NCBI GenBank assembly: GCA_041664625.1 | Contig: JBAYKK010000001.1 | Location: 1,956 to 65,955 of the forward strand | Source of the DNA: Minisyncoccota bacterium | GTDB taxonomy: Bacteria; Patescibacteriota; Minisyncoccia; Phycocordibacterales; WO2-35-19 | Length of the DNA stretch: 64,000 bases | Reading direction: 5' to 3' | Part shown: one piece after another, positions 16,672 through 39,925 of the stretch | Position numbering within the stretch: position 1 is the stretch's first letter | Layout of the letters: each line of letters begins with the position of its first letter | Translations under genes and position numbers: made by a program | The notes under the pieces: model-generated | Seen by the model: the letters and a program-made list of their open reading frames with translations, nothing else | The model's database searches: none | What the model was told of the DNA's origin: nothing

Positions 16672-17100
16672 GTGATGAATCTAAAAGAATTAAAATTAGC
16701 AGGTGGGCTTATTTATATGTGTGAAGGAACTAAACTTCGCCAAGATCTGCGTTATAAAAATACTTTTATATATGCGATAGAGTTTACTAATTCTAATCCT
16801 AAATTGGTTTTTTTGTTCGTTAAATTTATGAAAAAGATTTTGAATATTGAACCAAATAAAATTAAAGGCCAACTTTTTATTTATCCAGATTTAGATAAGA
16901 AAAAAGTTATGGATATATGGAGCAGTCGGACGGGTGTGCCCATTGAACAATTTCAAAAAATCATTATGCTTAAGGCGAAGGTTTCAAAATTTAAACATAA
17001 CCCATTAGGTACGTTTAAAGTGAGGTATTCGAGTAAAGAAAAATTTTTGAAGCTTCAGGAAATAATGGATAGTATTTGGAGAGATGCGAGAGTGGTTTAA
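16672..17100 (+). CDS. Hypothetical protein. 'LAGGLIYMCEG' weakly resembles a LAGLIDADG motif. Its 3' end overlaps tRNA-Ser by ~23 nt.
   Basis: ORF only. The motif resemblance is weak. Confidence 0.3.
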   Translation: MMNLKELKLAGGLIYMCEGTKLRQDLRYKNTFIYAIEFTNSNPKLVFLFVKFMKKILNIEPNKIKGQLFIYPDLDKKKVMDIWSSRTGVPIEQFQKIIMLKAKVSKFKHNPLGTFKVRYSSKEKFLKLQEIMDSIWRDARVV

Positions 17101-17162
17101 TCGGCAGACCTGGAAAGTCTGTGTGGGGCAACTCACCAAGGGTTCGAATCCCTTTCTCTCCG
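17078..17162 (+). tRNA. tRNA-Ser (anticodon GGA) with a long variable arm. CCA is not encoded.
   Basis: Hand fold: acceptor GGAGAGA/TCTCTCC, anticodon stem CAGAC/GTCTG with loop CTGGAAA, and T-arm AAGGG-TTCGAAT-CCCTT. It closely resembles E. coli tRNA-Ser. Confidence 0.8.
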
Positions 17163-17275
17163 CATTGACAATTTAGTATCGGTGTGTCCCGATTACTTGA
17201 GAGTAATCTGCGACCGGAATACTATAAAAAGTTGAACAAAAAATACGAGAGCTATTCGTATTTTTTGTTTTCCTA

Positions 17276-18604
17276 CTAAGCTATCAGAGTTATCTTTTTA
17301 TCCTTATACTCCAACCTGCTTCTGAGATTAGCCAGCAGTTCTCTTTTCTCGCTCGTGCTCCCTTCCTTGAGGAGATACTTGGCGTAATTCCTAATGTCGG
17401 TATCGTAGTTAGTTTGCGTTTTTTCTTTGGCTCCAAGCACAGATCGCTGGAAAATATTGTATCTTTTAATCTCTTCTTCCAACTTATGTTGCATCCCAAG
17501 CTCATTGAGATTCACTTGGTCTATGATTTTAAGAAGCCCGTCAATCAGTTCTTCCTCCCTAATATATTTATTCTTGCAATTCCGGTCTCTAGCTCGGCTA
17601 CACCCGTAGTATATGTAGTGAGCCGAAGTACCATCTTTAAGCGGCTTCCATTTTTCTTCAGCTGATATGCCAGACTGGCAGTACCCACAGGTGAAAAGCT
17701 TGGTAAAGGCAAACTCTTTGTTTTCTCTCACTATCTGATCCCGCTTAAGTTGAGCTTGGGTTTTTTCAAAAAGTTCCTGAGTAATTAACGGCTGGTGCTT
17801 GCCTTGGTACCAGTTTCCAGACTTGGTTGGATACTCAAATGGGCCGTAGTAGAAGGTATTTTGCAGTACTCGGTATACTCCACTTAACGTCAGGGGTTTA
17901 TTCCCCCGGGTATGGAAATTCAGTTCAAATTTCATCCAGTTGTAAATCCTTCTGCCAGAATATTGCTCGTACGCCACCTTCTCAAACATCTTTTTTATTA
18001 TCGGAGCTCTCGCAGGATCAACTAACAACACGCACTTCCTATCCATCATTTTTTGGGTTAAATATCCAAGTGGTGCTTGAGTTGGCCAGAGACCCATCTC
18101 TACTCTAGTTCGCAAACCTCTTTTTACATTGATGCCTCGGTTATCGTTTTCTAGTTTTGCCTGACTGCCTAAAATCATCAGGAGGAATTTTTCATTAGGG
18201 TTATTTGAAAACTTCTGACTATATGTGCGTATTTCCACCAAAAGTTTGGCATCCATGAGGTCTACGATTTTTCCCAAGTCCCCGGCATTCCTTGAAATTC
18301 TGTCCGATGCCCAGGTTAATATTCCATTATATTTTTCTTTCCTAATATCATCGATTATTTCATTAAAGACCACTCTTGTACCGGTCTCTTTTGCAGAGTG
18401 ACTTTCTCTCTTAATTTCTACCACCTCCAACCCTTCCTTTTCAGCCAGTTGAAGCATCTCCTTCACCTGACTATCAATGCTCAAAACTTGCCTCTCCTCG
18501 GACTCGGTACTCTTCCTAGCATAGAGGCAGTATTTGACCGGAACCACCACTTCTTCTTTTTTCTTGAAATCTATAATCGAACTTCTTATTTGTGTTTCTT
18601 GCAT
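17276..18604 (-). CDS. Large serine recombinase (integrase).
   Basis: Catalytic 'YARKSTESEE..SIDSQ' N-terminus, a recombinase domain and a C-terminal Cys cluster 'CGYC...C'. Confidence 0.85.
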   Translation of the reverse strand: MQETQIRSSIIDFKKKEEVVVPVKYCLYARKSTESEERQVLSIDSQVKEMLQLAEKEGLEVVEIKRESHSAKETGTRVVFNEIIDDIRKEKYNGILTWASDRISRNAGDLGKIVDLMDAKLLVEIRTYSQKFSNNPNEKFLLMILGSQAKLENDNRGINVKRGLRTRVEMGLWPTQAPLGYLTQKMMDRKCVLLVDPARAPIIKKMFEKVAYEQYSGRRIYNWMKFELNFHTRGNKPLTLSGVYRVLQNTFYYGPFEYPTKSGNWYQGKHQPLITQELFEKTQAQLKRDQIVRENKEFAFTKLFTCGYCQSGISAEEKWKPLKDGTSAHYIYYGCSRARDRNCKNKYIREEELIDGLLKIIDQVNLNELGMQHKLEEEIKRYNIFQRSVLGAKEKTQTNYDTDIRNYAKYLLKEGSTSEKRELLANLRSRLEYKDKKITLIA

Positions 18605-18746: not shown

Positions 18747-19166
18747 ATGTTTTCAATAGATCTTAAAAAAATTACTAAAATATCAGCGATATTTATTATC
18801 CTGGGAGCAGTGATTTTTGGCTATTTTTGTCTAGACACATTTACTCACCATCAAATGGAAGCGGGGTTAACCGGTAACACTTCATCTGTAATGCAGAATG
18901 CTGAATCTTGTTGTAGTACAACTTTTTCAAAATATTCAGAATCCTTACTATCTAATTTTAATTTGTCATCAAGGGCTGATGATTATTTACTCATTCTTAT
19001 TATCTCAGTTGTATTAGCTTATATAATAAATTTGCTACTTCGCAGTATTACAAATACAGGTTCCTTATTGCAGAGATTGTTCTTACTGCAAAACCCAAAT
19101 CTCGTCGCGTTTAATTCTCTTAAACTAGCTTTTTCAAACGGAATAATTAATCCAAAAATTTTTTAA
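18747..19166 (+). CDS. Hypothetical membrane protein.
   Basis: Two hydrophobic helices. A terminator hairpin follows at 19181-19220. Confidence 0.4.
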   Translation: MFSIDLKKITKISAIFIILGAVIFGYFCLDTFTHHQMEAGLTGNTSSVMQNAESCCSTTFSKYSESLLSNFNLSSRADDYLLILIISVVLAYIINLLLRSITNTGSLLQRLFLLQNPNLVAFNSLKLAFSNGIINPKIF

Positions 19167-19244
19167 CTTCCCAAGTTGTTGCGCTTAATAATGTTTAAGC
19201 GCGTGCCTTTTTGTATTTTACTAATTATTAAACTTAAATAAGTT

Positions 19245-19967
19245 ATGGAAACCGAATTAAAAAAAGAGCGTATATCCATACCCACAGCAATTATCCTGGC
19301 GGGTGTATTAATTGCTGGAGCGGTGATATGGAGTAATAAAAGCAATGCAAATTTAGCTCAAAAACAGCAACCTCAACAAGTCGCGCAGCAGACCGGCGAC
19401 CTCGAGCAGATGGCTAAAATATCTGCTAGCGACCACATTCGCGGTAATCCAGATGCGCCAGTTAAAATCGTCGAATACTCGGACCCGGAATGTCCATTCT
19501 GCAAACGCTTCCACGACACGATGAAGCAGGTCATGGATGAGTACGGCAAAGACGGAAAGGTTGCGTGGGTCTACCGTAATTTTCCGCTTGATCAACTCCA
19601 TCCAAAAGCTCGCAATGAATCCGTGGCTATCGAATGTGCCGGTGATTTAGGAGGTAACGACAAATTCTGGTCATATGCCGATCGGCTCTACGAAGTGACT
19701 CCCTCAAACAACGGCCTTGATCCAGCAGAGCTTCCCAAAATAGCTCAATATGTTGGCCTTGATGTAAGTAAATTCAACAGCTGTCTTACGAGTGGAAAAT
19801 TCGACAAACACATTGAGGATGATGTTCAGAATGCCGCTGCAACAGGTGGAAACGGTACGCCATGGAGCATTGTGGTTGATAAGAATGGTAAGAAGTACCC
19901 TCTGTCCGGCGCACAGCCCTACGCTTCAGTAAAACAGCTAATAGATATCGCTCTACAAAGCAAATAA
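19245..19967 (+). CDS. DsbA-family thiol:disulfide oxidoreductase.
   Basis: N-terminal TM anchor and the thioredoxin-fold active site 'CPFC'. Confidence 0.75.
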   Translation: METELKKERISIPTAIILAGVLIAGAVIWSNKSNANLAQKQQPQQVAQQTGDLEQMAKISASDHIRGNPDAPVKIVEYSDPECPFCKRFHDTMKQVMDEYGKDGKVAWVYRNFPLDQLHPKARNESVAIECAGDLGGNDKFWSYADRLYEVTPSNNGLDPAELPKIAQYVGLDVSKFNSCLTSGKFDKHIEDDVQNAAATGGNGTPWSIVVDKNGKKYPLSGAQPYASVKQLIDIALQSK

Positions 19968-19971
19968 CTCT

Positions 19972-20514
19972 ATGGTATTTCAAGCTCTGCAAAAAGTATT
20001 CCGGAGACCACAGTATGCGCTACTTGCTTTCGTAACAAGCGTAACAGTCTTTGTGTTTGCTGTCTGGTTCCCAAACCTACCACTGATTGTAAGAATCATG
20101 GGACACTCAGACATATTATTCTCGCAGAAGTTTGATCTACCAATCAGTCTTTTAGGATCAATTGTTACCAACTTCACTCTGCTCTCCGCTTCATACACTA
20201 TAGCTATCGCTATTTTGTTCGGAATTAATCTGTCTATGCTCGTCTACTTTTTGCGGCGAAGAGTTGCTGAAGTAAAACAAGGAGGAATTGCCACAGGAAT
20301 ATTTGGTATTACGAGCGGAGTTGTAGGAATCGGCTGTGCCGCCTGCGGATCGTTTCTCTTGACCAGTATTCTCTCGCTAGTTGGTGCATCCTGGATACTT
20401 TCATTTCTTCCCTTGCGCGGAGCGGAATTTGGCATCTTAGGGGTAATCTTACTTTCCACATCACTCTACACAACAGCGAAGAAAATCCAAAATCCGGTTA
20501 TCTGCAAAATTTAG
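19972..20514 (+). CDS. Polytopic membrane protein with an intramembrane CxxC ('GCAACGS').
   Basis: Hydropathy pattern and the Cys motif. Confidence 0.45.
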   Translation: MVFQALQKVFRRPQYALLAFVTSVTVFVFAVWFPNLPLIVRIMGHSDILFSQKFDLPISLLGSIVTNFTLLSASYTIAIAILFGINLSMLVYFLRRRVAEVKQGGIATGIFGITSGVVGIGCAACGSFLLTSILSLVGASWILSFLPLRGAEFGILGVILLSTSLYTTAKKIQNPVICKI

Positions 20515-20537
20515 CCACAATCATTTAAATCAAAAAT

Positions 20538-21134
20538 ATGGAACCCACAATAAATCAAGAATTAACACGTCAGCAGCGCAGAGAGGTTGAACGACAAGAA
20601 AGAAAAAAAGGAGAAGGGTCGTCTCTACAAAAACGGAAAATAAAAAAGGTTTTGCTTTGGACAATCGGTACTCTTATCGTGATTGGGATAATCTATTTGC
20701 TTGCAATAAGTGTAAAAAACCAAAAACCAAGGCCTGGTGAAGCCTTTTCAGTACAAGGACAAGAACATATTGCGGTTGGAGCAACTCACGAAGAGTACAA
20801 CTCTAACTTACCCACATCCGGCCCTCATTACGCACAACCCGCAAAATGGGGAGTGTACCAGAGCGAACTGCCTGATGAACAAGTTGTCCACAATCTTGAG
20901 CACGGTGGCATCTGGATTGCTTATAAAGACATTCCTGAAGACACAAAAACTACTTTGGAAGAAATTACAAAATCCGGATTGAAGATAATTATGACACCCA
21001 GAGCCAAAAATGATGCACCTATCACTCTCGCTTCTTGGGGAAGAGTTCAGAAGTTTGAGAGTTTTGACAGACAGGCCATCTTAGACTTTATCAGAGCCAA
21101 TACTAACAAATCACCTGAACCATTTGCGCAGTAG
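20538..21134 (+). CDS. Membrane-anchored secreted protein, possibly DUF3105-like.
   Basis: 'SGPHY....HNLEHGGIWI' pattern. Family assignment is tentative. Confidence 0.4.
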   Translation: MEPTINQELTRQQRREVERQERKKGEGSSLQKRKIKKVLLWTIGTLIVIGIIYLLAISVKNQKPRPGEAFSVQGQEHIAVGATHEEYNSNLPTSGPHYAQPAKWGVYQSELPDEQVVHNLEHGGIWIAYKDIPEDTKTTLEEITKSGLKIIMTPRAKNDAPITLASWGRVQKFESFDRQAILDFIRANTNKSPEPFAQ

Positions 21135-21253
21135 GCGAGAAATAAAGAATGTTGGTTATCCACAGGTGTATATTTGACAAATAGAGTATAGGGGTATAGG
21201 GTATATATAGGTCGATAATAATCAATCCAAATTACCCTATAAACCACTAAATC

Positions 21254-21526
21254 ATGTTAGATCAAAAACTAAAAAAGAAAGCCACCCACCGAGCCAGAAT
21301 CATTCGCGGTCAGATGGATGGCTTAATAAAAGCAATAGAAGAAGAAAAGTATTGTGTTGATTTGATAACACAGTCTCGATCAATTCAGCTCTCACTCAAG
21401 AGTATGGACAGGGTGCTTCTTGCCAACCATCTTCAGGGTCATGTGAAGCACATGCTCAATGATAAAAAACAAGAAGCCAAAGCCATTAAAGAGCTCGTCG
21501 ACCTCTACGCGTTATCAAACAAATAA
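21254..21526 (+). CDS. CsoR/RcnR-family metal-sensing transcriptional repressor.
   Basis: 90 aa helical protein with Cys (YCVD) and His (HLQGH) at the CsoR metal-ligand positions. Confidence 0.6.
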   Translation: MLDQKLKKKATHRARIIRGQMDGLIKAIEEEKYCVDLITQSRSIQLSLKSMDRVLLANHLQGHVKHMLNDKKQEAKAIKELVDLYALSNK

Positions 21527-21528
21527 CC

Positions 21529-21738
21529 ATGCGCAAAAAAATTACATCATTTTTAAAGAAATTTGGAATGCATGAGGTGAAAGAACCTCAGACTTTCTTT
21601 GATGTTGTTTGCGGTATGGAGCTTACAGTGGATAAAATCAAGCACACCGTTGAGCACACGAACGGCACTGCGTATCATTTCTGTTCGAAGTCGTGCAAGG
21701 ATCATTTCGTCAATGATCCTCAAAAATATCTAAGTTAA
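21529..21738 (+). CDS. YHS/TRASH-domain metal-binding protein (1 of 3).
   Basis: 'DVVCGM....YHFCSKSCKDHFVNDP'. Confidence 0.7.
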   Translation: MRKKITSFLKKFGMHEVKEPQTFFDVVCGMELTVDKIKHTVEHTNGTAYHFCSKSCKDHFVNDPQKYLS

Positions 21739-21760
21739 TTAATCAATTAACTCAAAAAAT

Positions 21761-21997
21761 ATGAAGATGTCAAAAATATTGCATGTTGTCAGCGTTATAT
21801 CGGGAATCTTGGGAGTCCTCTCTTTTCTTGGTTTGTTTGGCGGAGGAATGATGTCTGGGTTCTCTGGAATGATGGGATACGGACAAGGGTCTACACTCAT
21901 GCCCATGGGTTCGATAGTATTCTTTCTCATCGCTATCTGGCTTCAGCTCGCAACCATGCATCACATGATGCTCGAGAAGAAAAGAGAGCTTGTTTAG
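21761..21997 (+). CDS. Small membrane protein with a Met/Gly-rich loop ('GGGMMSGFSGMMGYGQGSTLMPMGS').
   Basis: Met-rich motif of the kind seen in Cu(I)-binding proteins. Preceded by the AT palindrome motif. Confidence 0.45.
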   Translation: MKMSKILHVVSVISGILGVLSFLGLFGGGMMSGFSGMMGYGQGSTLMPMGSIVFFLIAIWLQLATMHHMMLEKKRELV

Positions 21998-22011
21998 ATT
22001 AAAAACTAATA

Positions 22012-22194
22012 ATGAAAACCATGGAAAATAACCACCCATCAAGAAAAGTGTTCGATCCAGTGTGTGGCATGGAGCTTGATATTGAAAATGTCAGACATTC
22101 TTTTGAACACGAAGGTATAGAGTATTACTTCTGTTCTGAGAAGTGCAAAACTGAATTTATTAATGATCCGGAAAAGTTTATTAAAAAAGATTAA
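22012..22194 (+). CDS. YHS/TRASH-domain metal-binding protein (2 of 3).
   Basis: 'DPVCGM....YYFCSEKCKTEFINDP'. Confidence 0.7.
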   Translation: MKTMENNHPSRKVFDPVCGMELDIENVRHSFEHEGIEYYFCSEKCKTEFINDPEKFIKKD

Positions 22195-22224
22195 TTATCA
22201 CTTAATTAATAATTAACAAAAAAT

Positions 22225-22491
22225 ATGAATCTCTCACTAAAATCATATGGCTGGAAGTGTGTCATTGGAGCCGAAGTGGCATACATTCTTTGTGTATTGG
22301 GCGGATTCCTCCCCTTACGGTCAGCGGCTGGGATACAGCTTCATCACACCATTTTTGAAACTCTACCTGGCTTTACTTGGATTAGTTTTGGCAGCTTCAT
22401 ACTTGGTGCAATCTATATGTTCGTCTTCGCTTGGATTTTCGCTTCCTATTTCGTGTGGATGCACAATTCAAGTTTAATAAGTACTAAATAA
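22225..22491 (+). CDS. Small membrane protein.
   Basis: Two or three TM helices. Preceded by the conserved TTAATTAATAATTAAC motif. Confidence 0.4.
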   Translation: MNLSLKSYGWKCVIGAEVAYILCVLGGFLPLRSAAGIQLHHTIFETLPGFTWISFGSFILGAIYMFVFAWIFASYFVWMHNSSLISTK

Positions 22492-22499
22492 TCAAAATT

Positions 22500-22799
22500 A
22501 TGCACAACCACGAAAAAGACAATAAAGGAATGGGTTCTATGATGTGGATGATGCTCATCTGCTGTGCTGTACCACTGATTCTTATTCTTCTCTTTGGAGT
22601 AGGAGGCAAAGCATTTGGCGCTTCGTCATGGGTTATTTTTGGTGGAGTTGCGTTTATGCTGTTGGCCCACTTCTTTATGATGAGAGGCCATGGACATTCT
22701 AATGAAGAAAAAGATAAACAAGGTATTGCTGGTGAAGATAGCAAAAACAAAGATGATAAGGACCACAAAGATCATTCCGGTCATGGATGTTGCAGTTAA
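22500..22799 (+). CDS. Met/His-rich small membrane protein ending in 'SGHGCCS'.
   Basis: 'MGSMMWMM', 'HFFMMRGHGHS' and a C-terminal His/Asp/Lys-rich tail with a CC pair. Confidence 0.45.
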   Translation: MHNHEKDNKGMGSMMWMMLICCAVPLILILLFGVGGKAFGASSWVIFGGVAFMLLAHFFMMRGHGHSNEEKDKQGIAGEDSKNKDDKDHKDHSGHGCCS

Positions 22800-22815
22800 A
22801 TAAAGTTAAAATTAT

Positions 22816-23025
22816 ATGGAAAACAAAATAAAATCATTGATCAAAAAATTGAGTAGGTTTGGTTTTAGTGTCAAACCCAAAAAAGAAAGCCATATAGATC
22901 CCGTGTGCGGAATGGCGGTGTCGGATGATTCTCTCAAAGCCGATTATAAAGGCAAAAGTTATTATTTTTGCTCAAGCCACTGTAAAGAACAGTTCATAGC
23001 CAATCCTAGTGAGTACGTAGATTAA
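22816..23025 (+). CDS. YHS/TRASH-domain metal-binding protein (3 of 3).
   Basis: 'DPVCGM....YYFCSSHCKEQFIANP'. Confidence 0.7.
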   Translation: MENKIKSLIKKLSRFGFSVKPKKESHIDPVCGMAVSDDSLKADYKGKSYYFCSSHCKEQFIANPSEYVD

Positions 23026-23029
23026 AAAC

Positions 23030-23482
23030 ATGGATACAAAACAGAAGACAAAAATATTCCTTAATGCCATTACGGCGACTCTTTCGCTTCTACTTTTGTA
23101 TTTTGCCATAGTTACTCTGGTATCTGGCTTCAAATTTGCCATGTCTCAATTTGAAAGCTTTTGGTATTTTTTAATCAGTCTGGCGATAGGATTTGGAATC
23201 CAGATTGGTCTGTACTCTTATCTCAAACAACTGGTTAAAAACAGCAACACGATTATGAAGGACAAGACTATTGCAGTAACTGGGACAACTTCCACTCTAG
23301 CCATGATTTCATGCTGTGCTCATTATCTTGCCAATATTGTACCCATACTTGGTATAGCCGGAGCGCTTACTATTATCGCCCAATATCAAACTGAGATTTT
23401 CTGGGTTGGACTTGCATTTAACCTGTTTGGCATTGCATTTATCAGTAATAAAGTCATTAAATTTAAAAAATATCATGAATAA
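23030..23482 (+). CDS. Membrane protein with four predicted TM helices.
   Basis: Hydropathy. Confidence 0.45.
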   Translation: MDTKQKTKIFLNAITATLSLLLLYFAIVTLVSGFKFAMSQFESFWYFLISLAIGFGIQIGLYSYLKQLVKNSNTIMKDKTIAVTGTTSTLAMISCCAHYLANIVPILGIAGALTIIAQYQTEIFWVGLAFNLFGIAFISNKVIKFKKYHE

Positions 23483-23936
23483 AACAATTACAATATTGGT
23501 ACTGGTACTTGCTTTTATAGGTGGCTTCCTGCTTTTTTATAAGCCTAAACAAATTTCTAGTCCGACTACAGACAATTCTCCTGCATCAAGTACATTGGGT
23601 CAGTGGGAAACAAAAACTGATGAACAAGCAAATGTAACGGTTACCATTACCCCATCTGACATATCCATAGATTCAAAGGAGTGGAAATTTGATGTTGTTA
23701 TGAATACCCATTCGGTAGAATTGGATCAAGATATGGTTAAGGCGACAATTCTTATAGATAATCCGGGGGAGGAATATAAACCATTGCGCTGGGAAGGCGC
23801 TGGGCCTGGGGGCCATCACAGAGAAGGCACTTTGGTTTTTGCTCCAATCAAGCCCTATCCACAACACCTAAGCTTGATTATTAAGGGTATTGGCGACAAA
23901 GACAAAGCCTTTGCGTGGATCTTAAATGGGGAATAA
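23475..23936 (+). CDS. Hypothetical anchored or secreted protein.
   Basis: N-terminal TM helix, then a soluble domain with 'GGHHREG'. Confidence 0.35.
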   Translation: MNKTITILVLVLAFIGGFLLFYKPKQISSPTTDNSPASSTLGQWETKTDEQANVTVTITPSDISIDSKEWKFDVVMNTHSVELDQDMVKATILIDNPGEEYKPLRWEGAGPGGHHREGTLVFAPIKPYPQHLSLIIKGIGDKDKAFAWILNGE

Positions 23937-23959
23937 TTTTTTAATCAAATCAGAACGAT

Positions 23960-24484
23960 ATGAATCCAAAAATAAGACATCATGAAGAAAGTACGATAGT
24001 AGACATTTCTCCTATGAGACTTTTTGCGTACGTGGATGACCATGCCCGTTTTGCGTCACACATGAATAGTTCTTCTTGGATGATGGGCGGAGGACATATG
24101 AATACCCAAGTTGATACGGGGCGTGGCCAAAGAGTCGGTTCACATATACAAATGGACGGAAAAATTTTGGGCATTAATCTTTATCTTGATGAAGTTGTAA
24201 CGCAATACGAACCGCCTTATTTAAAAATATGGAAAACAGTTGGAGATATAAACCTCTTAATAATCGGCCACTATCAAATGGGTTTTAAAATAGAAGAAGA
24301 ACGTGGTAAGTCATTATTTACGGTGTTTATAAATTATAAACTGCCCCAATATATCGGTACTCGCTGGTTGGGATATTTATTGGGAGGAGTTTATGCGAAG
24401 TGGTGCGTTAAACAAATGCTTTCAGGCCCAACAAAATATTTTAATCATAATAACAAGAGACAAAATTATGGAACACAATCATAA
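23960..24484 (+). CDS. Hypothetical protein.
   Basis: ORF only. Its end overlaps the start of the ATPase gene. Confidence 0.3.
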   Translation: MNPKIRHHEESTIVDISPMRLFAYVDDHARFASHMNSSSWMMGGGHMNTQVDTGRGQRVGSHIQMDGKILGINLYLDEVVTQYEPPYLKIWKTVGDINLLIIGHYQMGFKIEEERGKSLFTVFINYKLPQYIGTRWLGYLLGGVYAKWCVKQMLSGPTKYFNHNNKRQNYGTQS

Positions 24485-26654
24485 TCCAATGAAAGAAAAA
24501 GATGGAATAATATACACCTGCCCCATGCATCCGGAGGTAAGGAAAACCGAGCCAGGCAAATGTCCAGGTTGCGGTATGGACTTGATTCCTGAAAAGAAAT
24601 CGGTAGGGGTTCACGCTGACCATGATATGCAAAAGATGAGCCATATGGATCATGAATCTGCCATGACAAATCCTCAGATGGCCAAGAAAATGGAAAAAGA
24701 TATGCGCCGAAGATTTTGGATTTCTTTCTTACTTTCCATCCCCATCTTTCTCTACTCCCCAGTCGGCATTAATTTCTTTGGGCTCAATCTGCCAACCCCA
24801 ATACCTATAAATTGGCTTCTCTTTATACTTACAACTCCGATAGTATTTTGGACCGGCTCGATCTTTATTACTGGTACCTACTACTCGCTCAAAGCCAAAA
24901 AACTCAATATGGCCGTGCTTATAGCCACCGGCGTTTTAGCTGCGTATCTTTTTAGTGTACTCCTCACTTTTATTCGACCGGGTAGCGAAACTTTTTATGA
25001 AGCGGCAGCTCTTTTAGTTACTTTCGTGTTGTTTGGCCATTGGATGGAAATGAAATCCCGCAGAGGCACTTCTGATTCGCTTAGGGCTCTTTTTGATCTT
25101 GTTCCACCAAAGGCAATTGTTATAAGAGATGGAAAAGAGTTGGTTATTTTAAGTTCCGAAATTATTAAAGGAGATATTGTTTTGGTAAAACCGGGTGACA
25201 AAATTCCGGTGGACGGCAAGGTTATTGAAGGAGAAACCAGTATAGATGAATCTCTCATTACCGGAGAATCAATTCCCGTAAGCAAAAATATCGGCGATGC
25301 TGTCGTTGGCGGATCGGTCAATATCACCGGGGTTATCAAATTTAAAGCTGAAAAAGTCGGTGCTGACACTGTATTAGCAAGCATCATTAAAATGGTTGAA
25401 ACTGCCCAGAACTCCAAAGCTCCTGGCCAGCGTATTGCCGATAAGGCGGCCGGATGGCTGGTAGTTGTAGCGATTGGCTCAGGGCTGGCCGCTTTTTTTG
25501 GCTGGTATGTATTCGCCGGCGCTGCTTTGATCACTGCTCTTACCTTTGCAGTCTCAACAGTGGTCATCGCGTGCCCTGACGCTCTTGGTTTAGCTACCCC
25601 TACGGCCGTTGCGGTGGGTACTGGAATAGGAGCTAAAAATAATATCCTTATCAAAGATGCGGCTACTTTGGAAAATACTTCTCGCCTAACTGCTATCGTG
25701 CTTGATAAGACCGGTACTTTAACTGAAGGAAAACCGAAAGTGACTGATGTTATTGCTTTCAATGGATTTACTGAAGATGAGATCATGAAATACGAAGCCA
25801 CTATTGAGTCCGGTTCCAATCATCCAATTGCCAAAGCTATTATTGACGAAGCAAAAAATAGAAATATTGAAATTGCTTCTCATCAAAATTTTGAATCAGT
25901 GGCAGGACACGGGCTAAGAGCGGTCATAGACGGCAAAAAAATATTAACTGGCAAAGAAAAACTATTGAATGATAATGGTGTTGATATAATAAAAGAAAGG
26001 ATTGTCTTTGAACGCTTGGCGAGTGAAGGTAAAACAGTCAGTATTTTGGCAGTTGACGGCAAAGTTGCCGGAGTAATAGCGGTAGCCGATACTATTAAAC
26101 CAAATTCCAAGAAAGCGATAGTTGCTCTAAAAAAATTAGGGCTTGAAGTCATTATGATTACCGGTGATAACCAGCGTGTTGCTCAAGGTGTCGCTAATGA
26201 GCTCGGCATAGACCGCTTCTTTGCTGAGGTCTTGCCGGAAGAAAAAGAAAACTATGTAAAAAAACTGCAAGATGAAGGGAAATTTGTGGCTATGGTTGGC
26301 GATGGTATAAATGACGCTCCCGCTTTGGCTCGTTCGGATATTGGTATTGCCATAGGAGCGGGTACAGACGTGGCTATTGAGACCGGCAATATTGTGCTTA
26401 TGAAATCCGATCCTTATGATATTGTGGCCGCCATTCGTTTAAGTAAAGCGACTGTCAGAAAAATGAAGCAAAATCTGTTTTGGGCTGCCATATACAACCT
26501 CCTTGCCATTCCAGTTGCGGCCGGGGCATTTTATAACTCGTTTGGGTTATCTCTTCGACCAGAAATAGCGGCGCTTTTAATGTCCGCTTCATCTATAATT
26601 GTCGCTACCAATGCTGTTTTGCTTAAAAGAGTGGAATCAAAATTAAAATTATAA
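24468..26654 (+). CDS. copA: Heavy-metal (Cu+-type) translocating P1B-type ATPase.
   Basis: N-terminal Cys cluster 'CPMHPEV..CPGCGM', TM 'CPC' ('ACPDALGLATP'), 'DKTGTLT', 'GDGINDAP' and 'MITGD'. Confidence 0.9.
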   Translation: MEHNHNPMKEKDGIIYTCPMHPEVRKTEPGKCPGCGMDLIPEKKSVGVHADHDMQKMSHMDHESAMTNPQMAKKMEKDMRRRFWISFLLSIPIFLYSPVGINFFGLNLPTPIPINWLLFILTTPIVFWTGSIFITGTYYSLKAKKLNMAVLIATGVLAAYLFSVLLTFIRPGSETFYEAAALLVTFVLFGHWMEMKSRRGTSDSLRALFDLVPPKAIVIRDGKELVILSSEIIKGDIVLVKPGDKIPVDGKVIEGETSIDESLITGESIPVSKNIGDAVVGGSVNITGVIKFKAEKVGADTVLASIIKMVETAQNSKAPGQRIADKAAGWLVVVAIGSGLAAFFGWYVFAGAALITALTFAVSTVVIACPDALGLATPTAVAVGTGIGAKNNILIKDAATLENTSRLTAIVLDKTGTLTEGKPKVTDVIAFNGFTEDEIMKYEATIESGSNHPIAKAIIDEAKNRNIEIASHQNFESVAGHGLRAVIDGKKILTGKEKLLNDNGVDIIKERIVFERLASEGKTVSILAVDGKVAGVIAVADTIKPNSKKAIVALKKLGLEVIMITGDNQRVAQGVANELGIDRFFAEVLPEEKENYVKKLQDEGKFVAMVGDGINDAPALARSDIGIAIGAGTDVAIETGNIVLMKSDPYDIVAAIRLSKATVRKMKQNLFWAAIYNLLAIPVAAGAFYNSFGLSLRPEIAALLMSASSIIVATNAVLLKRVESKLKL

Positions 26655-26658
26655 ATTT

Positions 26659-28263
26659 ATGAAAAATAAACTAACTATAGGAATCATTGCAGCCGTAGTC
26701 ATCATAGGTGGGATTGTCCTTGTACAAAGTCCGGACACTGGTAATAAAGTATTGGCTGGAAGTTTTTCTACTGATATAACCGGTCTGGCAGAAGCCAAAA
26801 CATCAGAGACTGTTGAGCTTAAAAACGGCGATACCTACGATCTCACGGCTTCAATTGTGAAGAAGATGATTGGCAACAGCGTGGTCAAAATGCTCGCCTA
26901 TAACGGCATGATTCCGGGACCCATGATTAAAGTGGAGCAAGGTGCGGAAGTAACACTCAATTTCACTAATAATACAGATGTTGACACCACGATTCATTCC
27001 CACGGAGTGCGACTTGATAATAAATTCGATGGCGTTCCAGACGTGACACAAAAAGAAGTTAAAACGGGCGAATCTTTCACTTATAAGGTCAAATTCCCTG
27101 ACGAGGGCATGTACTGGTATCACCCTCATATTCGAGAAGATTACGCACAGGAGCTTGGCCTTTACGGCAACTATCTTGTTACTCCCAATGATCCGAACTA
27201 CTGGTCTCCGGTCAATCGTGAAGTTGCGTTGTTCATAGACGACATCCTTATAGAAAACGGCAAGATTGCGACGTTTAGCAAAGCGTCTGCAGATCGCACG
27301 CTTATGGGCAGGTTCGGCAATACCATGCTTGTAAATGGCGAGATTGACTACACACTTCAAGCAAAAGCAGGAGAAGTAATCCGCTTCTATATCACGAACT
27401 CCGCGAATACAAGAACGTTTAATATCTCTATCCCCGGCGCAAAAATGAAACTTGTGGGAGCTGATGGCGGAAAATATGAACGCGAAACGTGGAGCGACGG
27501 TGTGGTTCTAGGCCCTTCTGAACGTACAATCGTTGAGGTGCTCTTTGCGAATTCCGGATCTTATATGCTTCAGCACAAAACTCCGAATCGTACTTATACA
27601 TTGGGAACGATTAATGTTACCAACGAGAAAGTAATTAATTCATTTGAGAAAGAGTTTGTGATACTACGTTCAAACAAAGACATGCAAGCGGAAATTGACG
27701 CATTCAGACCATTTTTCAATAAACCGGCAGATAAGCGTTTGAAGCTCACTATTGATATGGGTATGCAGATGCAGGGCATGATGCAAAACAATACCGGTGG
27801 CCACAATATGAATATGATGGGCGGCAATCAAATGATGCCCAACAGCGAAATGGTGGCTAGTGGCGATCCTATTGAGTGGGAGGAAAACAGTGCAACAATG
27901 AACGTTATGTCCAATTCTGAAATTATGAAATGGGTTATCCAAGACGAAGACACTGGCAAGAAAAATATGGATATTGATTGGAGCTTCAAAGTTGGCGACA
28001 AAGTTAAAATCAAAATCACCAACGATCCGAAGTCCGTGCACCCAATGCAACACCCTATTCACTTCCACGGCCAACGTTTTTTAGTACTTTCAACAAACGG
28101 CAAACCGAACGATAATCTTGTGTGGAAAGATACTACTCTAATCCCAAACGGAGATACAGTTGAACTTCTTGTTGAAATGACAAATCCAGGTGAATGGATG
28201 GCACACTGCCACATTGCCGAGCATTTGGAGGCAAGCATGATGTTTGGTTTTAAGGTTAATTAA
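26659..28263 (+). CDS. Multicopper oxidase with a Met-rich insert.
   Basis: 'HSHG', 'WYHPH', C-terminal 'HCHIAEHLEASMM', and the Met-rich 'MGMQMQGMMQ...MNMMGGNQMM'. Confidence 0.85.
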   Translation: MKNKLTIGIIAAVVIIGGIVLVQSPDTGNKVLAGSFSTDITGLAEAKTSETVELKNGDTYDLTASIVKKMIGNSVVKMLAYNGMIPGPMIKVEQGAEVTLNFTNNTDVDTTIHSHGVRLDNKFDGVPDVTQKEVKTGESFTYKVKFPDEGMYWYHPHIREDYAQELGLYGNYLVTPNDPNYWSPVNREVALFIDDILIENGKIATFSKASADRTLMGRFGNTMLVNGEIDYTLQAKAGEVIRFYITNSANTRTFNISIPGAKMKLVGADGGKYERETWSDGVVLGPSERTIVEVLFANSGSYMLQHKTPNRTYTLGTINVTNEKVINSFEKEFVILRSNKDMQAEIDAFRPFFNKPADKRLKLTIDMGMQMQGMMQNNTGGHNMNMMGGNQMMPNSEMVASGDPIEWEENSATMNVMSNSEIMKWVIQDEDTGKKNMDIDWSFKVGDKVKIKITNDPKSVHPMQHPIHFHGQRFLVLSTNGKPNDNLVWKDTTLIPNGDTVELLVEMTNPGEWMAHCHIAEHLEASMMFGFKVN

Positions 28264-28281
28264 AATTATAAAAATAAAAAT

Positions 28282-28914
28282 ATGTCATCAGCATCAGGTT
28301 ATGGAATGTGGGGATTGGTAGTATTAAATGTAGCGATTTTTCTTATATTCGCTTTCAGTTTTACTCATCCAAAAACAAAAAGAGATTGGCGATCATTCGG
28401 AGCATTTTCGGCATTTATTGTGGCGTTGTTTACAGAAATGTATGGCTTTCCGCTGACCATTTATTTTCTTTCCGGTTGGCTTACGAAATGGGTACCCGGA
28501 CTTGATCCTTTTACACACAACTCTGGTCATATTTTAGAAGACCTTTTTGGGTGGGGTGGCGATCCTCATTTTGGACCGTTCCATATTGCAAGCTATATTC
28601 TGATTTTTTACGGATTTAGTTTGCTTGCTAAATCATGGAAAGTTCTTTATGCAAGTCAGCGTGAACATACTCTCGCCACTACCGGCCCGTACGCTCGTAT
28701 CCGCCATCCTCAATATGTGGGATTTGTAACTATCATGTTCGGATTTCTTTTGCAGTGGCCTACTATACTCACGGTTATCATGTTTCCAATTCTAATATGG
28801 GTTTATACTCGCCTTGCTTACAGAGAAGAAAGAGAAATGCAAAAAGAATTTGGCGATGTTTACAAAAAATATTATGAACAAGTTCCCGCTTTTATTCCTA
28901 GGTTAAAAAAGTAA
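28282..28914 (+). CDS. Isoprenylcysteine carboxyl methyltransferase (ICMT)-family membrane methyltransferase.
   Basis: 'RHPQYVG' motif and TM helices. Confidence 0.55.
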   Translation: MSSASGYGMWGLVVLNVAIFLIFAFSFTHPKTKRDWRSFGAFSAFIVALFTEMYGFPLTIYFLSGWLTKWVPGLDPFTHNSGHILEDLFGWGGDPHFGPFHIASYILIFYGFSLLAKSWKVLYASQREHTLATTGPYARIRHPQYVGFVTIMFGFLLQWPTILTVIMFPILIWVYTRLAYREEREMQKEFGDVYKKYYEQVPAFIPRLKK

Positions 28915-28941
28915 AGTATGCTATACTTTTAGCAACCAAAT

Positions 28942-29349
28942 ATGAAATACATTGCAACGTTGATTTTCATAAGTTTTTTGGGATTAGCCGTATTTAGCAC
29001 TATGGCTCTTAATCATAGGATGAACGATTCTGTGGATAACTGCATAGGTTCTAAAGTGGATAACACTCCTTGCCCTACCAACTTAGTGGCAGCGGCCGCT
29101 CATCACATTTCCGTTTATCAAGCGATTTTCAATACATTTATACCTTCAGTTAGTAACTCTCTTGTTTTATTAACATTACTGCTCCTTGCTCTAGCATTTA
29201 TATCCTGGTCTGCCAAAGATCTTATCAGCGAGACTTCCCAACTTAAATTTTTACATCAAAGATTAAGAGATTTTGAATTAGTAAGACATAAAGCTAGACA
29301 AAGATTTGTCTCTTGGCTTTCTCTTTTTGAATTGAGTCCTTCTATATAA
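28942..29349 (+). CDS. Hypothetical membrane protein.
   Basis: N-terminal and central TM segments. Confidence 0.35.
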   Translation: MKYIATLIFISFLGLAVFSTMALNHRMNDSVDNCIGSKVDNTPCPTNLVAAAAHHISVYQAIFNTFIPSVSNSLVLLTLLLLALAFISWSAKDLISETSQLKFLHQRLRDFELVRHKARQRFVSWLSLFELSPSI

Positions 29350-29446
29350 TCCGGCACGAATTAGCCTAAGCTTTTTCGTGCTGTTCAATATCCCATCTCT
29401 GGGATATTTCTATTTACTACTAAAATTATTAGCTTACAGAAAAATT

Positions 29447-30316
29447 ATGGAAATTCTCGTAGGAACATCTCTCGTGGCGGCATTCGTGGCCGGAGTAGCA
29501 GCTCTGTTCGCTCCATGTTGTGTGTCTGTTCTTCTGCCGTCTTACCTTGGGAACGTATTCAAAGAAAAATACAAAATTTTCTTTATGACTTTTGTATTTT
29601 TCCTCGGTATGGCAACAGTTTTCCTGCCGATCGGATTGGGAGCATCAATGTTGTCTCAAACTTTCAGCAAATACCACAGCCAAATATTCACGGTTGGCGG
29701 TATATTCCTGATGGTACTTGGGATCTTTATGCTGTTCGGTAAAAAAATGACCACACCTGCTTCTGTTAGAGATGGTATGAAAAAGCATGTTTCGTCCATC
29801 TATGTCCTTGGAATATTCTCAGCTATCGCAACTACTTGTTGCGCTCCGGTATTGGCTGGAGTGCTGACTCTCTCGGTCGCTAGTGGCACAGTTATTTGGG
29901 GAGTGATTTATACCCTTGCTTACGTCTTGGGTATGACATTGCCCCTATTCATCATTGCTGCACTTCTGGACAAATACAACCTTACGGAAAAAATAAAGGG
30001 GGCGAAAAAGATTGTGGCTATGCGGCTCGGAAGCTTTAAGTGGAGGATTACGGTCTCTGAACTCATCTCAAGCCTAATCTTCCTCGCAATGGGCGGATAT
30101 ATCACGTACTTGGCTTTTGCCAATAAATTGACTATGCATCCGTCCGATTATCAGCTGCAAATGAACATATACAACGCCAAATTTCTGGGTGCTATTCAGG
30201 GCTATGTAAAAATAATTCCCGAATATATTTGGGCTCTGATCTTCGTATTGATCGTGTCGTATATGTCATTTGCGTTTATCAAACTAATTAAAAAACAAAA
30301 CAATGAAAAAATTTAA
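29447..30316 (+). CDS. Polytopic membrane protein, possibly DsbD/CcdA-like ('APCC' in TM1).
   Basis: Six to eight TM helices with a conserved Cys pair. Family assignment is tentative. Confidence 0.4.
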   Translation: MEILVGTSLVAAFVAGVAALFAPCCVSVLLPSYLGNVFKEKYKIFFMTFVFFLGMATVFLPIGLGASMLSQTFSKYHSQIFTVGGIFLMVLGIFMLFGKKMTTPASVRDGMKKHVSSIYVLGIFSAIATTCCAPVLAGVLTLSVASGTVIWGVIYTLAYVLGMTLPLFIIAALLDKYNLTEKIKGAKKIVAMRLGSFKWRITVSELISSLIFLAMGGYITYLAFANKLTMHPSDYQLQMNIYNAKFLGAIQGYVKIIPEYIWALIFVLIVSYMSFAFIKLIKKQNNEKI

Positions 30317-30959
30317 GGAATACATACCGCTTTTAACAGCATTCATGTTCGTTATTGGGGTCGGGGCACTCGGATTTATTTTGTATAAATCGGCTCCGCC
30401 CCAAACTGCCCAATCTGCGACAGCGACTAATGATATGTCCAGCCATCACAGCGGAGGGGCTGGAGCAGTGACGGATAATGGTCCGCTCAATTCTCTAATA
30501 GGCAAAGCATTGCCGGATATAAGTCTCCAAGATAAAGATGGTAAAACATACGCCAATGCCGACCTTAAGGGTAAATATACAGTCCTTTTCTTCAATGAGG
30601 GGCTCATGTGTTATCCCGGATGTTGGAACCAAATTGCTGCTTTTGGCAGTGACTCGAGATTCAATTCGGCCGATGTACAGGCTATATCTGTAGTAGTTGA
30701 TTCGGCCAAAGATTGGCAAAAGGCTATCGCCAAAATGCCTAAACTGGCTAATGCTAGAACTATGTATGACACAGGGGCGAGCGCCTCAAAACAGCTCGGT
30801 ATGCTCTCCACTGCTTCTTCGATGCATAAAGGATCACTGCCCGGACACACGTATGTTTTGGTCGATAAAGATGGAATCGTAAAGTACGTTTATGACGATC
30901 CTAATATGGCTATCGCCAACGATTCTCTCTGGGGCAAAATTCAGGAATTAAACAAATAA
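30303..30959 (+). CDS. Thioredoxin-fold (redoxin/TlpA-like) protein with a CxxC ('CYPGC').
   Basis: 'KYTVLFFNEGLMCYPGC' and an N-terminal anchor. Confidence 0.55.
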   Translation: MKKFKEYIPLLTAFMFVIGVGALGFILYKSAPPQTAQSATATNDMSSHHSGGAGAVTDNGPLNSLIGKALPDISLQDKDGKTYANADLKGKYTVLFFNEGLMCYPGCWNQIAAFGSDSRFNSADVQAISVVVDSAKDWQKAIAKMPKLANARTMYDTGASASKQLGMLSTASSMHKGSLPGHTYVLVDKDGIVKYVYDDPNMAIANDSLWGKIQELNK

Positions 30960-30964
30960 CAATT

Positions 30965-31456
30965 ATGGACAAAAAACCAACAATGGAGGAGCTTGTGGAA
31001 AAAATAAATAAGCTCAAAGCTACGGGCGAACTTGATCTCTCTATGGAGGAAGATTTGAGTATAGCCATTATGAATCTGATTAGTCTGGAAGAACATTTCT
31101 ATTTTACCGGAGAAAAAACCGGTAAAAGCGAATATTTTGATTTGCTGGGCGAAACCAGGGAAATCAGAAAACAGCTTCTAGCTAAAATGATTGACAAAAA
31201 CGAAGGAGAGACTTGGTGCATTACCAAACACTTACTCGCTACGACCATGAGGCTTATAGAGGTCGGTACCAAGCTTCAATCGTCCGGCAAAAAAGAAGAA
31301 TCGCAAGATATGTTCAAAAAAGCCTATCAAATTTACTCTCTCTTTTGGGGACTTAGGCTTAAACTCATAGATTTACCTGAATTGAAAGAAGTATCAGGCG
31401 AGCCAATGACAAAAGAAGATATTATTAGCAAATTAGTAGACTGTTGCAAAGAATAG
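30965..31456 (+). CDS. Hypothetical protein.
   Basis: ORF only. Confidence 0.35.
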   Translation: MDKKPTMEELVEKINKLKATGELDLSMEEDLSIAIMNLISLEEHFYFTGEKTGKSEYFDLLGETREIRKQLLAKMIDKNEGETWCITKHLLATTMRLIEVGTKLQSSGKKEESQDMFKKAYQIYSLFWGLRLKLIDLPELKEVSGEPMTKEDIISKLVDCCKE

Positions 31457-31475
31457 ACTACACATTAAAAGTAAA

Positions 31476-32477
31476 ATGGAAAATAAAAAAACTTTCGAAA
31501 TACCTACGCCTGTGGCAATTATTATTGCTGGAGCATTGCTTTCCGGTGCTTGGATGTTCAATAATTGGCTGAATCTTCCAGTCAACCAGCAGAAGACGAC
31601 TCTGGCCGCCCAAAAGAAAGTCCAGGTTCAATTATCAGATGCGGAAAAGAAAGTCATCCCCGCTGGGGGGGTGGAATTACCAGTGACTTGGGGAGAACTT
31701 GGGAAACAGTTAACTGATGTCGGGGTCATTGATAAAGAAAAATTCAAAAAGTTGTATGTAGATCGCCAAGAATGGAATGCTGAATACGATAAGCTTCTTT
31801 CTGGTAATAACACAGGAAAGATCAGGGTTACCCCTGAAAATTCACCGTTTCTATTGAACTTACTATGGGCACTCGGCTTAGCTCAAAACAATCCTATCTT
31901 GTTTGATAAAGAAGACATAATGAATCCTAAGTATGCCAACGGCAAAACTCCTGGTTCAACATTTGCTTCTACCGGAGGCTGGAATATGGCCGTTGGAAAC
32001 AGTATGGACCACTATGGGAAGCACACCTTCTTTAATCTCACTCCTGAACAGCAGGCATTGGTTGATAAAATTTCTCGTGGCGTATACCGACCTTGCTGCG
32101 GCAATTCAACTCACTTCCCAGATTGCAATCACGGTATGGCCATGTTGGGGCTTCTAGAACTCATGGCCTCTCAAGACGCAAGCGAGCAAGACATGTGGAA
32201 AGCGGCTCTCGCAATCAATTCATATTGGTTTCCTGACACTTACATCACCATTGCTTCTTACATGAAAGAAAAGAAGAATATAGAGTGGAAAAATGTTAAT
32301 CCTCAAGAAGTTTTGGGAGTAGATTATTCAAGCGGTCAAGGCTTTGCAAAAATTTCTGCGCAGGTGGCTCCAGTATCTGGATCAAGCAGAGGTGGCAGTG
32401 GATGCGGCATTAGTTCCGGCGCACCGGCAGAAACAGTGGCACAGCCACAGAGAAGACAGAGCGGTTGCGGATTATAA
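31476..32477 (+). CDS. Secreted Cys-rich protein, paralog A.
   Basis: Shares 'YRPCCGNSTHFPDCNHGMAMLGLLE' and a Gly/Ser/Cys C-terminal tail with 32501-33388. Confidence 0.5.
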   Translation: MENKKTFEIPTPVAIIIAGALLSGAWMFNNWLNLPVNQQKTTLAAQKKVQVQLSDAEKKVIPAGGVELPVTWGELGKQLTDVGVIDKEKFKKLYVDRQEWNAEYDKLLSGNNTGKIRVTPENSPFLLNLLWALGLAQNNPILFDKEDIMNPKYANGKTPGSTFASTGGWNMAVGNSMDHYGKHTFFNLTPEQQALVDKISRGVYRPCCGNSTHFPDCNHGMAMLGLLELMASQDASEQDMWKAALAINSYWFPDTYITIASYMKEKKNIEWKNVNPQEVLGVDYSSGQGFAKISAQVAPVSGSSRGGSGCGISSGAPAETVAQPQRRQSGCGL

Positions 32478-32500
32478 GATTAAAATAGCCACAATAAAAA

Positions 32501-33388: not shown

Positions 33389-33418
33389 AATTATAAATTT
33401 AGATTAAACATTAAAATT

Positions 33419-35935: not shown

Positions 35936-36171
35936 ATTTTTCTCTTTTTTAACATCTGTTCAAGAAATTCGACCCGGTCTTTGAGGTCTCTGACTTCTAT
36001 AAGTTTAGATAACGCCAAAGCCAAGCGGGAAATAGTGGCTGCCCGACGCAAAGAAGTTTTTCTCTCAGCCACATCCTGCAAAGTCTCTGAAAGAATGGCT
36101 GCCGCCTCTTCAGCACTCATGTAATTTTTCTTTTGTAAATCTTTTTCGTCCATATTTTTACATTCCTTCAA
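35932..36171 (-). CDS. Hypothetical small protein.
   Basis: ORF in the same orientation as its neighbours, with overlapping stop and start codons. Confidence 0.35.
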   Translation of the reverse strand: MKECKNMDEKDLQKKNYMSAEEAAAILSETLQDVAERKTSLRRAATISRLALALSKLIEVRDLKDRVEFLEQMLKKRKI

Positions 36172-36547: not shown

Positions 36548-36557
36548 ATAACTTGGG

Positions 36558-38562: not shown

Positions 38563-38638
38563 AAAATTGGGTTAATTTTTAATTGTTTCTTTAATAATGC
38601 TTACTTGCGACATATAGTAACTATTTTAGGCAAAAAAA

Positions 38639-39172: not shown

Positions 39173-39178
39173 TGTCTT

Positions 39179-39849: not shown

Positions 39850-39925
39850 ATACACCGCCTTCGGTCCGCAGTAGCAGACCTTCGGCGTGACGAAGTCCGC
39901 CAGAAGGGGTGCGAAGGCGACCTTA
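39850..39925 (+). other. GC-rich multi-stem element directly upstream of the GIY-YIG gene.
   Basis: CGCCTTCG at 39861 pairs with CGAAGGCG at 39912, and an inner hairpin GACCTTCG-gcgtga-CGAAGTC sits between them. Confidence 0.35.

Follow-up and report, generated by a model that had tools for sequence, protein, structure and literature searches.

A probable 22.7-kb serine-integrase element carrying copper-resistance and redox genes at tRNA-Ser(GGA) of a Minisyncoccota bacterium

The 64,000-nucleotide stretch of a Minisyncoccota bacterium genome analysed here (contig JBAYKK010000001.1, positions 1,956 to 65,955; hereafter the window) contains a tRNA-Ser(GGA) gene abutted by a gene for a large serine recombinase (LSR). 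Comparison with related contigs indicates that window positions 17165–39861 are very probably a single integrated mobile element, about 22.7 kb long, with the recombinase at one end, a conserved core at the other and an exchangeable cargo slot between them. An earlier sequence-only reading had proposed an island of about 23–27 kb with its left edge at the tRNA and the recombinase and an unclear right edge. Both the tRNA and the recombinase were recovered by independent tools (ARAGORN and Rfam; three Pfam domains) and the left edge stands, while the size is slightly smaller and the right edge is now placed at 39860/61.

Boundaries and attachment sites

The tRNA-Ser(GGA) gene is intact (17078–17163, plus strand; ARAGORN; Rfam RF00005, 55 bits). 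The LSR gene (17276–18604, minus strand) is also intact, encodes an integrase of 442 residues (Pfam; PHROG integrase family, E 4e-58) and is transcribed toward the tRNA, with its stop codon 112 nt past the tRNA end. A terminator-like hairpin with a 14-pair stem followed by a T run is located 3' of the gene (17235–17269, minus strand). The catalytic domain (Resolvase PF00239, E 1.5e-19) contains the YARKST…SIDSQ motif quoted in the sequence-only reading (LYARKSTESEERQVLSIDSQ), including the R-x-S nucleophile motif, whose Arg30 and Ser32 are invariant in 34 homologues. The C-terminal domains are Recombinase (PF07508, E 1e-13) and Zn_ribbon_recom (PF13408, E 2e-8). This three-domain set is that of a complete large serine recombinase and not the architecture of a small resolvase. 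The nearest solved structure is the SPbeta integrase (9dxd/9dxh, E 1e-10), and the best curated NCBIfam match is CcrB (E 7e-34). Homologues at about 80% identity number in the thousands in the Candidate Phyla Radiation (CPR), and no annotated phage or plasmid contains a recombinase above 27–29% identity to the LSR.

The element ends were located by comparison with related contigs, since no copy of the tRNA 3' end is present elsewhere in the window; a serine integrase would not be expected to leave a direct repeat of tRNA origin at the far end, and the search of the window found none. In the related locus L002, about 120 nt past the LSR stop codon, up to AAATTGTC, are homologous to window 17164–17275 (E 2e-20), and the stretch that follows in L002 is homologous to window 39760–39865 (E 1e-10), 22 kb away. 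Therefore, the two element ends, P and P', are joined in L002 (P/P') and separated in the window.

The left junction, attL, reads …CTCTCCGCA-TT-GACAATTTAGTATCGG… in the window (in short, tRNA...CCGCA-TT-GACAATTT), and the right junction, attR, reads …GGGTACTTAACCCGAATACACCGCC-TT-CGGTCCGCAG… (in short, …CACCGCC-TT-CGGTCC…). The putative crossover dinucleotide TT is placed at 17165–17166 in attL by comparison with the P/P' junction of L002, and at 39860–39861 in attR, where the homology to a sibling element in locus L282 stops at 39858 and the host flank resumes at 39862. Both the dinucleotide and its position are inferred from these comparisons, and the boundaries are probably correct to within a couple of bases. 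The TT is the sole sequence shared by attL and attR at the junction, and this is the pattern that the 2-bp staggered cut of a serine integrase leaves. In place of the simple inverted repeats anticipated at both ends, the two sites are hybrids.

The element arm P' of attL (17167–17221) contains the family motif GACAATTTnnTATCGG (reverse complement CCGATAnnAAATTGTC) and is 72% identical to the sequence downstream of the L002 LSR (E 2e-20). The element arm P of attR, GGGTACTTAACCCGAATACACCGCC (39835–39859), is homologous to the L002 junction (E 1e-10), is also present in loci L269, L258, L226 and L282, and resembles the T-arm plus acceptor of a tRNA. The reconstructed attP is …ACACCGCC-TT-GACAATTTAG… (with a longer P side, GGGTACTTAACCCGAATACACCGCC-TT-GACAATTTAGTATCGGTGTGTCCCG), and the reconstructed attB is …CTCTCCGCA-TT-CGGTCCGCAG… (also written GGGTTCGAATCCCTTTCTCTCCGCA-TT-CGGTCCGCAGTAGCAGACC). 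The P and P' arms of attP are related by imperfect dyad symmetry, with 19 of 35 positions matching (shuffle p≈0.0004). The deduced sites thus appear to combine the features of serine integrase attachment sites, namely short length, dyad symmetry, a 2-bp crossover and hybrid attL and attR.

In the proposed mechanism, the LSR would recombine attP (arm P, TT and arm P') with a host attB composed of the last ~25 nt of tRNA-Ser(GGA), the TT three bases past the discriminator base, and the downstream flank. The acceptor and T-arm at the 3' side of the tRNA represent the host (B) half of the attachment site, and the tRNA gene stays intact because the crossover would fall outside it.

The sequence-only reading had offered three candidates for the far edge, of which the end of the XRE gene (39520) and the GIY-YIG gene (39932–40165, plus strand; Pfam GIY-YIG, E 7e-11) bracket the edge now found. 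The XRE gene is inside the element, and the GIY-YIG gene is outside it as a native neighbour of tRNA-Ser. The third candidate, tRNA-Val(CAC) at 44.2 kb, is not an edge of the LSR element, given the end of the L282 homology at 39858; both tRNA-Val genes are outside the element.

Related loci, mobility and alternative explanations

The chromosomal site was compared among relatives through the flanking HtpX gene, the product of which is 100% identical to a protein of a 'Candidatus Paceibacterota' metagenome-assembled genome and 77% identical to Zambryskibacteria proteins; the window thus belongs to a CPR/Patescibacteria genome. In L279 (HtpX 81%), tRNA-Ser(GGA) is followed after 92 nt by a GIY-YIG gene (51% identical to that of the window), and the site is effectively empty. 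The order HtpX–tRNA-Ser(GGA)–GIY-YIG in L279 is the order of the window with the element removed. The empty site that had been looked for is therefore present in this relative, and none was found at strain level. In L276 (HtpX 83%), a near-identical tRNA and a homologue of the ORF upstream of the tRNA (ORF142, see below) are present, and a different LSR abuts the tRNA. That LSR (L276 12865–14184) is 30% identical to the window LSR, its gene is cut by the contig end, and it follows the tRNA after the same …CTCTCCGCATT (…CCGCATT); its ORF reads into the tRNA. L286 (HtpX 77%) contains a P' arm by tRNA-Ser(GGA), followed by a homologue of the window gene at 46451–47650 and tRNA-Val(GAC). This remnant of ~57 nt (L286 11386–11443) is not accompanied by an integrase, is 78% identical to window 17111–17221, and is the scar of a lost element. 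In L006 (HtpX 56% by tblastn), a P' arm is also located by tRNA-Ser(GGA), and the LSR follows only after 4 kb of additional genes. Across these relatives, tRNA-Ser(GGA) is a recurrent hot spot.

Sibling elements define the modular structure. L282 and L283 contain a homologue (75% identical) of orf609, the last gene of the core, and the gene order XRE, M78, ParB-methyltransferase, methyltransferase, 128 aa, 70 aa and 609 aa is the same as in the window. At the DNA level, L282 is 73.5% identical to the window from 39858 to 34106, that is, from the P arm to the orf609 stop codon. Past the orf609 boundary, L282 carries a branched-chain amino-acid ABC transporter and no copper or redox genes. Therefore, 34106–39859 is a conserved core and 18.7–34.0 kb is an exchangeable cargo slot.

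Evidence for recent mobility comes from another sibling element, the window copy having been found only integrated. Loci L002, L003 and L004 originate from three different sequencing runs, encode an identical LSR protein and agree at every position (100.000% identity) over 11,458 nt and 4,964 nt, respectively. The split comes exactly after …TTGTCTTGGCGG: from there, L003 and L004 run into a tRNA-Ser-type 3' end, and L002 into an element P arm. This difference shows that, in the family, this position has recently undergone site-specific recombination. The window copy may still be able to excise. Contig ends near the junction were also considered as a sign of mobility and were discarded, as they lie within the T-arm of the tRNA, where the assemblies probably broke.

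A survey of 154 related LSR loci, drawn from IMG/VR, metagenomes and contig look-ups of individual LSR homologues, showed that tRNA-Ser targeting is family-wide. The P' motif CCGATAnnAAATTGTC, followed by 2 nt and a tRNA 3' end, was found at 35 non-redundant sites including that of the window. Among 33 tallied tRNA-adjacent sites, 30 are at tRNA-Ser (GCT 10, TGA 8, GGA 7, CGA 4 and ACT 1) and three at tRNA-Asp(GTC). The central dinucleotide differs among elements (TT, AA, CT and others). The distance from the LSR stop codon to P' ranges from ~90 nt to more than 6 kb and, therefore, cargo is possible on either side of the integrase. The consensus of the P arm, GGCGGTG…GGGTTaAGTACC in the LSR orientation, is like the tRNA arm GGCGGAG…GGGATTCGAACC in both sequence and spacing, a likeness that may explain the reuse of attR as a landing site. 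In L227 (9564–17201) and also in L228, three to four tandem units of 2–3 kb each are connected by P/P' joins and end at tRNA-Ser(TGA); an LSR is present in two of these mini-elements and missing from one or more.

Several points weigh against the interpretation of 17165–39861 as a mobile element. The empty site is from a relative with an HtpX only 81% identical, the flank of which is not alignable as DNA. The P/P' junction of L002 could represent a head-to-tail tandem instead of an excised circle, and the contig ends inside the tRNA (L003, L004 and L281) may be assembly artefacts. For the window genome, no excised circle or strain-level empty site was found, and none of the element genes was recognisable as encoding a directionality factor or as having a role in replication or transfer. 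In addition, the composition is indistinguishable from that of the host: the GC content is 0.409 in the island and 0.396 in the flanks, a difference no larger than the scatter inside the window, and the tetranucleotide distance of the island is near the values of control chunks. The island genes had been described as atypical; their composition is not, and composition proved uninformative as evidence of foreign origin. No terminal repeats marking circular contigs were detected among the loci. Exact-protein look-ups with the LSR and the GIY-YIG protein retrieved no strain without the island, and the loci with an identical LSR (L280 and L281) or an identical GIY-YIG neighbour (L285) display only the same integrated arrangement. 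A contig scan with the 25 nt of the tRNA 3' end was too general, with hits mostly in Bacteroidota, and the loci L052 and L054 are not close relatives.

By gene content, the element is neither a prophage nor an integrative and conjugative element (ICE). No Pfam or PHROG match to capsid, portal, tail, lysis or terminase proteins was found among the scanned element ORFs (the PHROG scan covered all but six small ORFs and the one of the ICMT family), and no Pfam match to a relaxase, coupling protein or type IV secretion component was found (oriT was not searched for). The element is thus unlikely to be a defective prophage, or a phage satellite packaged by a helper phage; in addition, two thirds of it are metal and redox cargo, orf609 is unrelated to the terminase of sibling loci, and the sibling in L282 keeps the same non-viral core. 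In favour of a prophage or satellite, phage protein families (PHROG) are matched by the integrase, the XRE protein, the M78 peptidase and the ParB-methyltransferase. For the family, a phage-satellite lifestyle is nevertheless a live rival: a large terminase (Terminase_6N) is located directly upstream of the LSR in eight of the 154 loci, several of which are copies of one element; and 69 of the related loci are from IMG/VR viral contigs.

A larger composite island of ~29 kb, extending from tRNA-Ser to ~46.4 kb, would account for the arrangement in L286, where at most 0.5 kb separates the P'-scarred tRNA-Ser(GGA) from the 46451–47650 homologue and tRNA-Val(GAC), so that 39.86–46.45 kb is absent; a 33-nt direct repeat also brackets 42.1–45.4 kb. 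We regard this extension as improbable, since the P arm and the end of the L282 homology coincide at 39858–39861, the GIY-YIG gene directly follows tRNA-Ser in L279, no recombinase is encoded in 39.9–46.4 kb, and L286 is distant enough (HtpX 77%) for loss of synteny to be expected. Least credible is the reading of the LSR as a lone or domesticated resolvase or invertase among ordinary chromosomal genes. The native-like composition and the integrated state of the window copy would fit such a gene, but this reading is already contradicted by the mapping of the att sites: the LSR has the full architecture, the junction arms are conserved at both element ends, L282 has the same boundaries with different cargo, an identical sibling element has alternative junction partners, and relatives have the tRNA-Ser site variously vacant, marked by a scar or taken by a different element.

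Core and cargo genes

Read as an integrated mobile element, 17165–39861 separates into the LSR, an all-plus-strand cargo block (18747–34042, ~15 kb) and the core, whose genes (34106–39520) are all on the minus strand. The sequence-only reading had placed a metal-resistance cluster, redox genes and a prophage-like regulatory and methyltransferase module beyond the recombinase. All three groups were recognised, with Pfam assigning XRE, M78, ParB_N–methyltransferase and methyltransferase proteins to the last; no virion genes were found that would justify calling it prophage-like.

At the P end, the core includes a conserved non-coding element end (39521–39834), which is within the 73.5%-identical L282 block ending at 39858, is partly present in L002, and probably holds promoter or operator sequences. 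It is followed on the minus strand by the genes for an XRE (ImmR/CapH-like) repressor (39179–39520; Pfam) and an M78 (ImmA/IrrE/CapP-like) peptidase (38639–39172; Pfam), a pair that is matched in PADLOC by capH (E 1e-9) and capP (E 7e-18). By inference only, such a pair suggests control of excision, with de-repression triggered by stress. A ParB_N–methyltransferase fusion (37300–38562) and an N6_N4 methyltransferase (36558–37340) come next (both minus strand; Pfam and PHROG); they are orphan DNA methyltransferases. The ParB-methyltransferase is present in about half of the 154 related loci. In L002 (8275–8643) and 81 other loci, about half of the LSR loci, a protein of ~122 aa follows the ParB-methyltransferase; it has a weak match to a transposase-type helix-turn-helix (HTH) and could be the small subunit of a terminase or an excision factor. 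The orf129 of the window was considered as the counterpart of this common protein and rejected, as the two have no similarity.

The remaining core genes, all on the minus strand and in the same order in L282, are orf129 (36158–36547), orf73 (35932–36153) and orf609 (34106–35935). A gene of the orf73 type (73 aa) is also called in L285. The orf609 family comprises 251 proteins, found in CPR only. The AlphaFold2 (AF2) model of orf609 is confident (predicted local distance difference test score, pLDDT, 82) and mainly helical, with no significant fold match in the PDB or BFVD. The products of orf73, orf129 and orf609 are candidates for an excision factor or other element functions, and a small core protein, orf73 or orf129, may act as the directionality factor.

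The exchangeable cargo slot, situated between the core and the integrase, here contains CsoR-regulated genes for copper efflux and oxidation together with genes for extracytoplasmic thiol redox reactions; all are on the plus strand. Its first part (18747–21134; Pfam) encodes two membrane proteins, a DsbA-like thioredoxin (19245–19967) and a DUF3105 protein (20538–21134). The second part is the copper-resistance cluster (21254–28263; Pfam and NCBIfam), consisting of a CsoR-family repressor (21254–21526), three YHS proteins (21529–21738, 22012–22194 and 22816–23025), a CopA P1B-ATPase (24393–26654), a multicopper oxidase (26659–28263), small membrane proteins and His-rich proteins. The third part (28282–34042; Pfam) encodes an ICMT-family methyltransferase, a DsbD_TM/CcdA-like protein, an AhpC/TSA thioredoxin-like protein, a SurA_N-like protein and several proteins of unknown function, those of which that were scanned had no PHROG or PADLOC match. 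CsoR and CopA also adjoin related LSRs in L239, L208 and L263. Elsewhere, the cargo of sibling elements includes restriction-modification systems, cyclic-oligonucleotide-based anti-phage signalling systems (CBASS), OLD-family nucleases, ABC transporters and copper resistance.

Known systems, significance and flanking sequences

Functionally, the LSR element resembles most closely the staphylococcal cassette chromosome (SCC) elements, which include SCCmec and composite SCC/ACME arrays and whose Ccr proteins are large serine recombinases. The best curated match of the LSR is the SCC recombinase CcrB, insertion takes place at the very 3' end of a conserved housekeeping gene without disrupting it, and resistance cargo is carried with no virion or conjugation genes. 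Several units are found at one site in composite SCC arrays, which the head-to-tail units of L227 and L228 resemble. Nonetheless, the LSR is not a Ccr (117 bits against a family cut-off of 900 for CcrB), the target is tRNA-Ser instead of rlmH, a single recombinase replaces the CcrA/CcrB pair, the hosts are CPR bacteria, and the core consists of XRE/M78 and the ParB-methyltransferase.

The SPbeta integrase SprA (YokA), with its partner SprB (YotN), is the nearest solved structure and has the three-domain LSR architecture. LSRs integrate unidirectionally by attP×attB recombination, and excision involves a separate small factor. The LSR is ~24–25% identical to the SPbeta integrase; SPbeta is a complete phage that interrupts the protein-coding gene spsM, and no SprB-like factor was recognised in the LSR element.

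Targeting of tRNA genes is a hallmark of tyrosine-integrase islands, and serine integrases are usually described with protein-coding or intergenic targets. The element shares with the tyrosine-integrase tRNA islands (P4-type islands, tycheposons and many ICEs) a tRNA 3' end as landing site, preservation of the tRNA, modular cargo and tandem accretion at one tRNA. It differs in using a serine recombinase, with a 2-bp crossover just outside the tRNA in contrast to a long identical segment inside it, and in the diverged tRNA-like P arm that is present in the window instead of a duplicated tRNA 3' end. The adjacent XRE HTH and M78 peptidase genes at the element end are similar to ImmR/ImmA of ICEBs1 and CapH/CapP of CBASS; here, the pair is not accompanied by conjugation or CBASS genes and its function is deduced from sequence.

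The genomes of CPR bacteria (Patescibacteria) are tiny, and descriptions of how these bacteria acquire accessory functions are few. The locus provides base-pair boundaries for an integrative element with a complete copper-detoxification and thiol-redox package, and it is unusual for a large lineage of serine integrases to target tRNA ends and to have an element arm that resembles a tRNA. Full-text literature searches retrieved no description of this LSR element family, which is apparently large and undescribed. A broader proposal, which we advance tentatively and with some doubt, is that the family is very large and specific to CPR/Patescibacteria, that integration by any tRNA-Ser gene, through the tRNA-mimicking attP arm, forms a tRNA-like landing site anew at the far end, that units accrete there repeatedly in tandem (including the 2–3-kb mini-elements and integrase-less units), and that it is a main vehicle of accessory genes such as defence systems, copper resistance and transporters. 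If this proposal were true, natural sets of attP, attB and integrase could be put to use in the genetics of CPR bacteria. A serine integrase requires short att sites alone and works without host factors, so the attP/attB pairs deduced here are directly testable and might be developed into integration tools for organisms in which genetic manipulation is very difficult.

Upstream of the tRNA, the ORF at 16672–17100 (ORF142) overlaps the tRNA 5' end by 23 nt, as previously noted, and is conserved in L276, where about four in five residues are identical by eye. The LAGLIDADG-like motif that had been ascribed to it gained no support from profiles, homologues or hhalign. The ORF142 family has 621 homologues in a representative library, many with an N-terminal HTH domain, and the domain of ORF142 itself matched no Pfam family. 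A LAGLIDADG homing endonuclease was rejected, as there was no Pfam match at E≤1, none of 24 homologues matched a LAGLIDADG family, and hhalign against I-CreI gave a probability of 0.1%. The single-sequence AF2 model (pLDDT 43) is of too low confidence for its fold to be informative.

To the right of the LSR element, comparison of window 39862–46450 with L286 11386–13200 shows that 6.6 kb are lineage-variable; they do not contain a recombinase, and nothing links them to the LSR. The 33-nt direct repeat in this region (42088–42120 and 45406–45438) has one mismatch, is sharply delimited with no homology in its flanks, and brackets 3.3 kb that encode a DUF84 NTPase, an AAA protein, an Exo_endo_phos fragment, tRNA-Val(CAC) and a polyprenyl synthase. 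The repeat may be the mark of a second insertion or of a regulatory site that was duplicated. Farther right, a local GC peak of 0.56 (compared with ~0.40 elsewhere) at 48001–49000 coincides with an ORF on the minus strand (48389–49072) whose product ends in a PEP-CTERM-like motif.

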